The notes below the pieces were generated by a model. That model saw nothing but the letters and a program-made list of their open reading frames with translations, did not search any database and was not told the DNA's origin. A stretch of 64,000 nt of DNA, taken from positions 1-64,000 of the forward strand of contig NGBS01000616.1 of the NCBI GenBank assembly GCA_002245135.1, given 5' to 3'. This DNA comes from Proteromonas lacertae. Its lineage: Eukaryota. Each line of letters starts with the position of its first letter. Within the stretch, counting starts at the first letter, position 1. Of this stretch, positions 3,420 through 11,708 are shown piece after piece. The position numbers and the translations under genes are program-made.

Positions 3420-6400
3420 TTATAATTCTTCCATATACTTACAACCGTCTTTATATCCTTTGTCAAATTCTTTTTTATCATCTTCAGTAGTACATTCTTT
3501 GATATTATCATCATAATTCAAATTGTTATATCCACAACTAAATCCAAAATCATAGTATTTCTTAACATCTACTTCTTCTTCTTCTTCTATATCACTACTA
3601 TTATTAACAAATACATTTGAATCATTTTCTTTCATATTTTCTTCTCCTTCCATTAGCTGATAAAACATTACATACCTACTGAATTTGATATAATATTCAT
3701 TATTTTTCTTTTCCTGAATATCATCTTCATTCAATACTTTTTCATCATCATATATATACCATTTACTGTCATTATAAGATTTGCATTTAGCAATATAATG
3801 CCTTGTTATTCGGTTATATTTTGTCATTCCTATTAAAGCATATATTTTCTTTTCTCCATCTATATAAAATGTAATAAATATAAATATGTACTGTCATTTT
3901 TAAAATAAAATTTATTGCATTCTTTCACAGTTTTTGCATTATCATGAGATAATAAATGTATAATTAATATATTTGGGAATTCACTAATTATTCTTTTTTC
4001 AAAAATCATTTTCCCACATTTTTCACATGTTTTGCCAAGACTGACATTTTTAAATCCTTTCCAACATTGTTGTAATTCAACACTTTCATTTTTCGTTTCG
4101 TTAATGCTTTTCCTTTCCACTTCAAATGATAAACTATAACACATATCACTGACATTATCCCTCTCATTATTACATTCACAATTTTTCTTTTTCACAATTG
4201 TCATTTTAAATGGATACTTTAAACTATCATCTAGATATTTTAATAGATCTGTAAGAAATTGATATGCATCTTCTTCATTACTACCTTTATAAATACTTCT
4301 CAATGATGATAAACTCTTTTTTACTTTTACCATATTACTTAACGCTGCATTACAGTCTTTAATCCATAAACTATTTAATAAATTAATGAAATAATTATTA
4401 ACATCCTTACTTTCATGATTATTTGCTATTCTATAATTGTTTTTTGGTATGGTATGAGCTAAACATTGTAATATCGATATAATATAACAATTATTATTTT
4501 CATTCTTAATACCACAAGTATAAGCTCCACTATTAGGAATATAAATACTGTTATTAGAATGAGGAGGTGGTGGTGGCTGTTCTATCTTAATATTATTATT
4601 CTGAGGTGGTGGAAGGTATTGTTGTTGTTGCTGGACATTATTATTTCTTTCTACTACACATTGTATCGAATAATCTTTCCTATTTTTTATAACAAAGTCT
4701 TTTTCATAAACATATTGATTGAATTGGCATTCACAAGAATGAATATTAATATTACCAGATAATGGTATTTTTTTCTCTTTTACAGAAACTTTTGTTATTA
4801 TATTATTTGTTACATCCATTCTCATTTTTTCTATTCCAATTAAGTGAGATGATATATGATGCTTTGTTGATTTTACATTTGATTGTTCTGCAGTTTTTCT
4901 ATCTGATGAAACAAAAATATAATAGAAATTTGACCACTTCATTATATATTTTAAATATATCATACATTTTTTAATAAAGTCATTATTACATTTTTTTACA
5001 CCTTCATTTTCATTCATAATATGTATGAAACAGTTATTTAATAAGTAAATCATATCTCTATTCTCAAGAGTTGCTAAATGAAGTAAATATATTTCACAAT
5101 CATCTTCTTTCTTGGCAGTAGAATATATATCATTATCGAATAATTCTTTAAAAATGACAAATTCACCTTCTTTTATTCTTTCTAATTTAACACCTAAATT
5201 ATTTTCTAAGTTATCATAATGAAATAAACATTTGTACCAAACTAATTCTTCAAATAACAATTTAAACAATAGAATATTATTTCCTTCTTTATAAACATTT
5301 TTAAAAATGTCTTTAATTTCATTAATATCTTCTTCTGTAGCTTTGTGCTTTACACAATCATATATATAATCAAATACATCATCAGAGATAAACTCCATTT
5401 CATATTCATTGATTCTGTCATAACATTTGGCAGATGTATTGTCAGCTTTATAAGGAATAGAATACTTCACTATATAATGACAGAGTGTACTATCAAATGA
5501 TGTTTTTAAATCATGGGAAATACTATTCTTTTCATCATTTGATCTACGTGGATATAAATATGTTAATAAAAATTCCATATAACCTAGATCACCAACTATT
5601 CTCTTTATACCTTTTGTATATAATTCCTTCCAATAGTCTTTATGATAATATACATCATATATTGCTGCGTAATAGATATGTCTTGGAACATTTCCATATT
5701 TTTTATTGAAATGATTTTTTTTCTTGTTAATTGACTTTTGCAAAGATTTTGGTAAGCATTTTTTTCCCCATTGTTTAATTTCATTATCATCAAATACATC
5801 CATATAATAATAAAACATTATACGAGTTGTAGTAATGAATTTATCATAATTGTTATGATCTGGTGAAGCAATATATAATACTATAGGAGAATCACTATGT
5901 TTACTATCAAGATTAAAAGAATCAGATATTTCTATTTCATGATTAATTGTTTTTCCACTACCTTCATCTTCATTAATTTCAATTACTTTTGATTCTTTTA
6001 ACAGATATTTATTCTTATCTTCTTTATTAATCCCACTTTTATATATATTCGTAGGAATTGGATCATCAATAACAACTCCTAAATCAATTATTTTTTTCAA
6101 TAAAAATATTATGAAGGAGGTTTTACCACATCCTGGATTTCCTCTTAATAAAAAGTTGAAACAACTATCAATATCAACTTCTTCATTTGTTTCTTTCTTT
6201 TCTGCTAATTCATTTAATACATTCTCTACTATTTCGATATTTTCATTTAAATCATTATCATCACTTACTTCTTTCAATTTATTATTTATATGATTACTAT
6301 CATTTAATTCTTTTATTATTTTGTTAATTTTTACTATGTTTTCACTTGCATTGCCTTTATATTTTCTCAATTTAACAAATAAAATAAATAACATTAATTC

Positions 6401-9400: not shown

Positions 9401-11708
9401 TTTTGTAATGTTTGCATTAGGTTTTGTAATGAAGTAAATAGAAGTTGCACGTTTGTATTTTCTAATGTCTTTATCAGATCATCTAATGAAGTTAATTGAT
9501 CTGATTGGTTTTCTAATGTTTGCATTAGGTTTTGTAAATTCTGTATTAGATTTTGTAATGGATTTAATTCATCTGATTGTAATTGTTGTAAGAAAAATTC
9601 CTTCAATTTCTTTAAAGTATATTCAATTTCATTAATTTCATTTATTATTCCATTATAAGTAAATCCTAATGTAGTTGATAAAGTCATTTTTACTACATCA
9701 TCTAATAGAATTTTTTGTTTTGTAATTTCATCTTCTATATTATGCAATACAAGAATGTGAAATAATATCCTATAATCTTCATTTTGTAATGTAAGGTTTG
9801 GTAAAATTTGATTTAATCTCCTTTTTATTCTATTCACCTGATCTAATACGCAGTTTAATAGTATAGTTACATCTATTGTCTCTTTATCTTCAAACACTTT
9901 AAATCATCATCTAATCTTTTATATTCATACAAATCACAATCTAAATATTTTTTAAACAGGTCAATTTTCTCTTTCCCATAAATATTAATCAAATCCTTCC
10001 TAATAATTTCATCAACATCATTTCTATTCTCAATTATATTAATTAAAAACTATATTAATAAACAATAATATGAATCTATACATATGTTTCACATAATATT
10101 TTCTTCCTTTCATCCATTTTCATTATATAATCTCTTTTTAATTCATTTGGTATATAACCATTTTGGTAAAGTGATGAGATTAAGATATCTTTATCTTTTT
10201 TACTGTCTGTTTTAAGATCTTTCAAATATTTAATTATGTCTTCTTTATGACAATTATAAAACATCTAGTTTAATGTAATAATAATAAATAATATATACGT
10301 TTAATAGAGCAATTACATTTAGTTTAACTTCATGTTTTTTCAGTTTTGTCATTTGAACAGCAGTTATATTATACTTATTAATTACGCATCCATCTATGCA
10401 TGGGAAATTGGATACCTCACTAAAATCTAAATATAATCCTTCGACGCTTTCTTTCTTTTCTGTTTCATATTTTGTTTCTTTATTGAGATAATCTTTTATA
10501 TCTTTCATTCTTTGTAAATAACACTTATTCTCTGGAAGATAGAGTTCATCATAATTATTGAAATCTAAATCCTTATAGTAATAACTACTATTGGATAAAA
10601 TTATGTGACATAATCTCTCATACAACCTTCCATCTTTATCTTTCAAAAATGATTTATATATGTTGCTAAAATCCTTTAGATCTATAAAGAAATGACCTAT
10701 TATATAATCTCTGATTGCATCAGATCTAAATATTAATCCATCTGGTATATCATTTATTCTTTTTGCATCGTAAATATAACATCTTTCATTATATTCTGGT
10801 GGTATATATGAAGGTAATTTATCCTTTTTATCACTAAAGTCTAAATAAGTACCTAAAAGTTCTGGAGTTGATGCACCTTGTAATATATATCCATATTGTT
10901 TACATCGGCCTAATAAAATATCTAATTTATCTTCAGTTTTTTCTCCTTCTACTTTATGAATAATCTCTTTTAACTCTTCTTCGCTAAAACCGGGTAGGTA
11001 AAACTGTACTGGAGCTCTTTTATTGCTCATTACTTTGTATTTCTTTGCATTTGGTGAACTAATCATTATTACTACATCATCATCACTGTAATCATCTTCT
11101 TTTATTACACAGTTATCACTAATAATAATACTCTTTCCTGTCGTTTCAGGTAATTTGTAATTACTTTTATATGTATCACCATAAGGTTCTCTAAAATAAT
11201 ACTTTACTCTTCCATCTACTTCACCAAAAAATATTATGTTATAGTCTTTAAAATCTTCATCGTGGTTAAAACAAAATGCAAGAAAAATACATAAACAAGT
11301 CTTACCTGTTCCTTCATTCCCATACACCAAAAAACACTTCTGAGGTTGAAATCCATCATTTTCTTCTTCTTCTTCTATTCTATTACCAATGACACTTTCA
11401 TTTTCTTTGGGAGAATGACTAGTTTGGGAGGATAAGGAGGGGTTTGTTAATGGGTCTATTACATCTAGGGATTCAGAATCTTCTGAAGAATCTAGGGATT
11501 CAGAATCTTCTGAAGAATCTAGGGATTCAGAATCTTCTGAAGAATCTTGGAGACTTGGAATGATTCTTTTCATTTCACTATAAATACCAACATAACTATC
11601 TCTCACAAGAAAGTAAGGTTCTTCCATATAAATTGCATCATTTGATTGTTTTACCATCCTCATTTCATTGACAAATCCATATTTCACTAATCTAGAAGTG
11701 ATTTTCAT
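3420..11708 (-). CDS. Giant (~2,700 aa) Crinkler/RHS-type effector: NTPase-REase, Q/L repeat stalk, second NTPase with degenerate REase, USP (peptidase C19) deubiquitinase
   Basis: ORFs 10254-11744, 10076-10264, 7297-9897, 3860-7207 and 3420-3827 are joined by GT-AG introns at 10265-10298, 10050-10081, 7385-7413 and 3860-3891, plus a likely in-frame intron at 6544-6573. One missing base in the A-run at ~9898-9900 is also required. Motifs: Walker A GNEGTGKT and GNPGCGKT; REase E...NFPCIDG...QMT...H; USP Cys box GIKNENNNCYIISILQCL, EEDAYQFL, His box RHYIA...WYIYDD. Confidence 0.75.
7717..9404. repeat. Intragenic direct repeat with 906-bp period (copies ~7717-8498 and ~8623-9404), built from shorter Q/L sub-repeats
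   Basis: Identical antisense ORFs recur exactly 906 bp apart (7749/8655, 8022/8928). The protein block QLTSLDDLIKASKNHQ...INPDQLTSL appears twice, and the QxDQLTSLDDLI unit recurs about 5-6 times. Confidence 0.95.
11462..11547. repeat. 27-bp tandem repeat x3 encoding SSEDSESLD
   Basis: tctagggattcagaatcttctgaagaa is repeated three times inside the first NTPase module. Confidence 0.95.

Follow-up and report, generated by a model that had tools for sequence, protein, structure and literature searches.

A Crinkler/RHS-like tandem NTPase gene with a putative C-terminal deubiquitinase domain in Proteromonas lacertae

We analysed a 64,000-nt stretch of the Proteromonas lacertae assembly GCA_002245135.1 (contig NGBS01000616.1, positions 1 to 64,000 of the forward strand; hereafter the window), in which a first-pass annotation made from the sequence had proposed a single gene at 3420-11708 for a protein of two Crinkler/RHS (CR)-type modules, NTPase and restriction endonuclease (REase), that ends in a ubiquitin-specific protease (USP). 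The window, from a flagellated protist, is eukaryotic, has a G+C content of 23-33%, shows introns of about 26-47 nt in its conserved genes and carries the flagellar genes CFAP91 and IFT122. On the minus strand, the gene is flanked by a family C G protein-coupled receptor (GPCR)-like gene and by CFAP91, which is divergent and whose probable start (11887) is 178 nt from the start of the gene itself at 11708. No second copy of the gene was found within the window.

Gene structure and the frame break

Removal of five GT-AG introns of the form GTA...TAG, after each of which the downstream exon opens in the frame demanded by the phase, gave an exon total of 8,132 nt (~2,710 codons) with a single frame break left (Table 1). 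The exon layout, the remaining break near 9898 and all motifs quoted in the first-pass annotation were thus recovered. The intron motif is no commoner in the window than in shuffled DNA (132 matches compared with a mean of 144 over 20 shuffles), so the evidence for the introns is positional: a motif of the right phase stands at four of the five frame switches (roughly estimated at ~0.02 each), the fifth switch, which is the break, being without one. The in-frame intron 4, earlier called only probable, is backed by intron-like read-through at the matching position in the relatives P0001 and P0036, and partly in P0014, as judged from their protein sequences, and the Pfam UCH profile runs on across intron 5. 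Three further intron-like motifs of the gene strand (9702-9750, 5206-5237 and 3587-3614) were rejected because they lie in open frames; the second would also cut a conserved stretch. One uninterrupted exon holds NTPase 2 together with its tail and the Cys box of the USP, so that the fusion of NTPase 2 with the USP does not depend on how the break is read.

At the break, the upstream frame runs open to its stop at 9875-9873, while no stop interrupts the stalk frame from 9903 downward. With 7,505 codons of the window's other genes as training set, a codon model found one frame coding up to ~9910 and another from ~9850, with no gap between them, and the stalk frame has 72 codons free of stops after the break before its first ATG (chance ~0.002). 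The right phase is also seen in a 23-nt GT-AG stretch at 9873-9895, but this stretch is rich in purines and does not resemble the other introns. Frame switches without any intron-like motif were also found in three conserved genes of the window: CFAP91 (switch at 13465, plus strand) aligned to a solved homologue until residue ~604 in one frame and from residue 605 in another, motif B of DNA polymerase A (57935, plus strand) was split over two frames, and the match to the MLLE domain of PABP (47495, plus strand) passed from profile positions 16-37 to positions 37-66 with a change to the next frame. A candidate fourth break, near 56900 (plus strand) in DNA polymerase A, is suggested by a motif, the PDB search giving no match. 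These 3-4 breaks per 14.6 kb of control coding sequence, in spans picked by profile matches and not exhaustively screened, amount to ~1 indel per 4-5 kb, and 1.7-2.2 breaks (wide interval 0.3-5.7) would be expected in a gene of 8.1 kb, the probability of at least one being 0.81-0.89. One break is therefore what the error rate of the window predicts for an intact gene, and we read it as most probably an assembly error, with a single open frame in the organism. The same indel rate bears on any frameshift claim for this genome.

Table 1. Features of the NTPase-USP gene; positions are those of the window.
Feature	Position	Strand	Description
Exon 1	10299..11708	-	470 aa; start codon, NTPase 1, most of REase-like domain 1; no header or signal peptide
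Intron 1	10265..10298	-	34 nt, phase 0
Exon 2	10082..10264	-	61 aa
Intron 2	10050..10081	-	32 nt, phase 0
Exon 3	7414..10049	-	contains the frame break and the Q/L-rich stalk
Intron 3	7385..7413	-	29 nt, phase 0
Exon 4	6574..7384	-	270 aa; charged linker, no Pfam match; basic nuclear-localisation-like motif KKRKR at ~7147-7133
Intron 4	6544..6573	-	30 nt, phase 1; N-terminal border of module 2; position apparently common to relatives
Exon 5	3892..6543	-	883 aa, one open frame; NTPase 2, degenerate nuclease-like tail, Q/P linker, N-terminal half of USP
Intron 5	3860..3891	-	32 nt, phase 1; splits the USP
Exon 6	3420..3859	-	USP His and Asp boxes, acidic tail, stop
NTPase 1	10900..11609 (3' boundary approximate)	-	N-terminal motif 11609-11592, Walker A 11321-11298, Walker B-like IISD 11126-11115
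27-nt tandem repeat	11463..11550	-	three copies; acidic insertion inside NTPase 1
REase-like domain 1 core	10332..10631	-	E (10619), D (10394), Q-x-T...H (10355-10332); predicted active
Frame break	9875..9906	-	single; likely assembly indel
Leu/Gln-rich repeat stalk	7692..9611	-	23% L, 16% Q; 51- and 57-nt units
NTPase 2	5600..6433 (3' boundary approximate)	-	Walker A 6142-6119, EISD 5932-5921, helical region that includes YGNVPRH 5698-5678
REase-like tail 2	4900..5275	-	retains the first Glu but has neither the catalytic Asp nor Q-x-T...H; predicted to be dead
Compact USP-fold peptidase	3657..4513	-	Cys 4489, His 3800, Asp 3749, CxC 4180, CxxC 4027; split by intron 5

Domains of the predicted protein

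The two NTPases are homologous and CR-like, as had been proposed: profile-profile comparison of NTPase 1 with the module 2 family gave a probability of 97.8% (E 1e-12; BLAST E 2e-6), and Walker A is intact in both. An AlphaFold2 model of module 2 (23 sequences, pLDDT 60) was matched to Orc1 (Z 9.5, root-mean-square deviation 4.0, 191 residues aligned), TnsC (Z 9.2, 5.0, 233) and NLRP9 (Z 9.0, 4.4, 200), with middling Z values, tied rows and coverage of residues 5-379 only. In this model the NTPase folds like ATPases of the STAND/Orc1-Cdc6/transposon type, the class expected for CR NTPases. Foldseek with the same model gave no match at E 0.001 in PDB or BFVD, and PADLOC returned only P-loop-level matches. 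Among Atlas language-model features, the CRN cluster (0.97) and the RHS cluster (0.92) were the nearest named matches for both modules, with recognition values (2199 and 2027) below the threshold of 2300. In these sub-threshold features, in fold class and in motifs the modules resemble CR proteins.

NTPase 1 is followed, as the first-pass annotation had it, by a nuclease-type set of motifs (E, D and QxT...H) that is common to the relatives P0016 and P0017; this set is linked to CR REases. The domain 1 tail compared with that of P0017 gave z 6.3 (0 of 500 shuffles as good) and with that of P0016 z 2.3 (15 of 500), and the comparison of exons 2-3a with the end of P0016 was not significant (41 of 500). 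Module 2 has a nuclease-like tail as well, a feature missing from the first-pass annotation, with a predicted alpha-beta-beta-beta-alpha-beta order (pLDDT 50-64); it has no D, Q and H motifs, and neither has any of ten close relatives examined. By its position, secondary structure and motif loss, this tail is likely a degenerate, dead nuclease.

The UCH family (PF00443), which the first-pass annotation had led us to expect, was matched by the 3863-7384 open reading frame (ORF) with E 4e-11 (profile positions 1-161) and by the last exon with E 1e-4, just under the cut-off (positions 195-254). The Cys, His and Asp triad was found in order by alignment with USP2 and USP21 (E 1e-6) and with the His box of USP15 (E 0.016), and all 13 PDB matches of the Cys-box half were ubiquitin-specific proteases. 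With the catalytic domains of these three enzymes the protist USP shares the order of the boxes and the zinc-type cysteines of the fingers region; unlike them, it is compact (~275 aa) and several positions that would grip ubiquitin appear to have diverged, which the first-pass annotation had not recorded.

The predicted protein begins without a LFLAK or ubiquitin-like header, in line with the earlier description: the NTPase motif starts at residue 34, PF20147 was not matched, and the short interval to the CFAP91 start leaves no room for an upstream header exon. No signal peptide, membrane or hydrophobic segment was found in it, and the exon 4 linker holds its one basic nuclear-localisation-like motif, so we read the protein as acting in the nucleus of its own cell. 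Within the stalk, 782 nt are duplicated exactly and in frame (7717-8498 = 8623-9404, spacing 906 nt), and this duplication is either very recent or an assembly artefact.

Relatives and known systems

A full HMMER search with module 2 returned 18 matches, of which 17, all from Logan contigs, were of this type (15 relatives with 36-48% identity, P0016 and P0017 with 29-30%); P0015 was dropped as an unrelated AAA protein. P0016 and P0017 are single NTPase-nuclease proteins whose catalytic motifs look intact. OTU was found in one of the 28 Pfam-scanned relatives (of 39 fetched). In P0036, residues 1-95 form a half domain similar to OTUD5 (E 2e-6; for Pfam OTU, E 8e-4, short of the cut-off) in front of a module 2-type NTPase in the same ORF; of the 19 members of its cluster, the 15 listed end or start short of the full gene. 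Thus a relative, too, would carry a deubiquitinase-type fusion to the same ATPase, one that the first-pass annotation did not contain, and deubiquitinase folds would have joined this NTPase subfamily at least twice. P0001 has an unrelated N-terminus ahead of the same intron position, and these sequences suggest an exchange of partners at an intron position that the relatives share.

No relative with the USP fusion came to light in these searches. In gene calls that end at introns, seven relatives with the tail motif stop 48-119 residues after it, where 172 are needed to reach the USP Cys box; the USP part, compared by BLAST with 37 relatives, gave no match. A search for longer proteins with the module 2 core found one of 2,736 candidates (P0001), without a USP, among relatives whose contigs are shorter than 5 kb and whose gene calls stop at introns. 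A word-index search with exon 1 gave no match among 7,987 candidates, and the four matches of an alignment search were all already-known relatives. Locus scans were negative for two sets of JGI metagenome stretches (123 and 613) and for viruses (0 of 6), the plasmid search gave no match, and the one hit among 31 in the prokaryote genome scan was rejected as a match to Walker A only.

Among known systems, CR proteins, which are found in eukaryotes with a free-living habit too, have NTPase and REase in over a quarter of their C-termini and Ulp1-like, trypsin and zincin peptidases among their C-terminal domains (PMC5289972). The protist protein is like them in its P-loop NTPase followed by a putative REase-like domain, in its predicted nuclear action and in carrying a peptidase, and differs in having no header, two tandem modules, a long repeat stalk and a degenerate second nuclease; its peptidase is a USP, which is absent from the CR domain list in the cited part of that paper. 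As predicted for the protist protein, the bacterial sterility toxin CifB (CidB/CinB) of Wolbachia combines live and dead REases in tandem with a deubiquitinase, a C-terminal Ulp1 or an N-terminal OTU, which has been proposed as "guardian" of the nuclease, and its REases were traced to CR/Medea1-like elements (PMC11342252). Unlike the protist gene, it has four REases, no NTPase, Ulp1 or OTU instead of a USP, and the CifA antidote, whereas the protist gene is eukaryotic, has introns and two NTPase-led modules, and adjoins no partner gene, its neighbours being CFAP91 and the GPCR-like gene. Tribolium Medea1, likened here by description only, unites CR-NTPase with CR-REase within an element of a eukaryotic chromosome and is no secreted effector; the cited part of PMC11342252 describes neither a deubiquitinase nor a tandem layout for it. 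The trypanosome retrotransposon hot spot (RHS) proteins are CR-type NTPases that work in the nucleus of the producer, and their Atlas similarity to both modules is the 0.92 given above; unlike them, the protist gene has no Pfam RHSP match, and no USP fusion is described for RHS in the cited part of PMC8311971. Our literature search found no CR-USP fusion, though a form with a USP or a tandem one may already be included in the text or supplements of Zhang et al. 2016. The first-pass annotation had presented the nuclease-deubiquitinase combination as unfamiliar; the guardian pairing had been proposed for CifB (PMC11342252) and Ulp1-like domains are known on CR C-termini (PMC5289972).

Possible function and alternatives

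Our preferred reading, to which we assign a probability of about 0.45, is one gene for a ~2,700-residue protein, a nuclease that works inside the cell, in the nucleus, under the guard of a built-in deubiquitinase and is convergent with CifB. The protein would stay in the protist's own cell and enter the nucleus, where NTPase 1 would switch nuclease 1 on, i.e. ATP-gated DNA cutting as proposed for CR proteins, and module 2 would be a non-cutting partner that binds DNA or restrains module 1 across the helical stalk. The C-terminal USP would strip ubiquitin from its own protein and so prevent its degradation, by analogy with the guardian of CifB, and the role would likely be in conflict inside the cell, as a defence against invading DNA or as a selfish toxin of the Medea/CifB kind. 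The architecture itself appears real, well supported and new in detail, as seen at one locus of an error-prone assembly.

Several results weigh against this reading. The Pfam scan gave no RHSP, Crinkler or PD-(D/E)xK/nuclease family match at E up to 1, so that the profile matches to RHSP and PD-(D/E)xK expected in the first-pass annotation failed to appear, and of its CR-type tandem modules the homologous NTPases, the fold class and the motifs stand, while a Pfam CR match is absent and the Atlas values fall short. The nuclease fold of module 1 is without model support (single-sequence pLDDT 32). The module 2 tail taken alone was not significantly similar to the tails of P0016 and P0017 (z -0.6 and 0.4), and it has no fold match, the structural matches ending at residue 379. 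In the USP, the Gly-Asn-Thr, Gln-Asp-Ala, Lys-Arg-Phe and Gly-His positions differ from USP2, USP21 and USP15; we take these to be contacts of the ubiquitin-tail channel in known USPs. UCH was found in none of the Pfam-scanned relatives, and the OTU domain of P0036 has its catalytic His replaced, which fits ubiquitin binding better than ubiquitin removal.

We regard as doubtful a wider version, in which the lineage built a chromosomal nuclear toxin with the logic of CifB from CR modules and its own deubiquitinases, pairing a live with a dead nuclease and swapping a C-terminal USP for an N-terminal OTU by exon shuffling at the shared phase-1 intron, the toxin being an element, selfish or defensive, able to withstand ubiquitin-dependent destruction.

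The strongest alternative, though an improbable one, is that the protein has been domesticated as a regulator in the nucleus: a DNA-binding ATPase of CR/RHS descent, it would deliver a deubiquitinase to chromatin or to the transcription machinery, much as trypanosome RHS proteins, which associate with RNA polymerase II, serve its transcription (PMC8311971). Such a role would suit a gene that stands single among housekeeping genes, close to the CFAP91 start, with a nuclear-localisation-like motif and a dead-nuclease module that many relatives conserve at 36-48%, but nuclease 1 keeps its catalytic-type motifs, the variable fusion partners and the fresh internal duplication suit a conflict gene, and module 1 has no close relative. 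Only slightly less probable is that the break, which is present in the sequence as given, is real, the locus being then either a pseudogene of recent origin or a pair of genes (one for NTPase 1-nuclease 1, the other for stalk-NTPase 2-USP), or that the layout is partly mis-assembled, as the mismatch-free duplication in the stalk might indicate. About 60% of RHS family members are pseudogenes (PMC8311971); here, however, no other lesion was found in 8.1 kb of gene, one break matches the error rate of the window, the coding-like interval from the stop to the next ATG is just ~190 nt, and the NTPase 2-USP fusion stands regardless. We think it distinctly unlikely that the USP fold cleaves the polyprotein itself or another modifier in place of ubiquitin and so releases or disarms the modules: a kept triad beside diverged ubiquitin-contact positions and the long low-complexity linkers between modules would agree with this, but the uniform PDB matches of the Cys-box half and the remaining zinc-finger cysteines do not. 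Least probable is that the protein is a CR effector of the classical kind, which reaches a host, prey or competitor and has nuclease and USP as twin toxins. Even though the core is of CR type, and CR proteins vary in their headers and need no signal peptide (PMC5289972), the NTPase motif so near the N-terminus and the lack of a signal peptide, a hydrophobic segment, a Crinkler header match and room for a header exon speak against the "effector" of the first-pass annotation in the sense of a delivered protein.

If the guarded-nuclease reading is true, a eukaryotic CR protein with another deubiquitinase family would be an independent case of an idea that came from bacterial CifB, and P0036 would add a third arrangement; with one protein and one catalytic cysteine, the gene would also make a simple test system. 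It further suggests that CR genes lacking a header act within the cell that makes their protein. Tiny introns together with assembly errors hide such genes from annotation.

Elsewhere in the window, the GPCR-like gene (1129-3084, plus strand; 7tm_3, E 6e-17) is convergent with the NTPase-USP gene, and a gene at 40675-45805 (minus strand) encodes a large TmcB-like multi-pass membrane protein (TPR_TmcB, E 6e-14). Two BTB-domain ORFs lie among Q/P-rich ORFs at 14870-19031 (minus strand), and a group of strongly Q/P-rich low-complexity ORFs occupies 23932-27012 (minus strand). A similar motif with cysteine closes the ORFs at 14870 and 19351, which suggests a local duplication.

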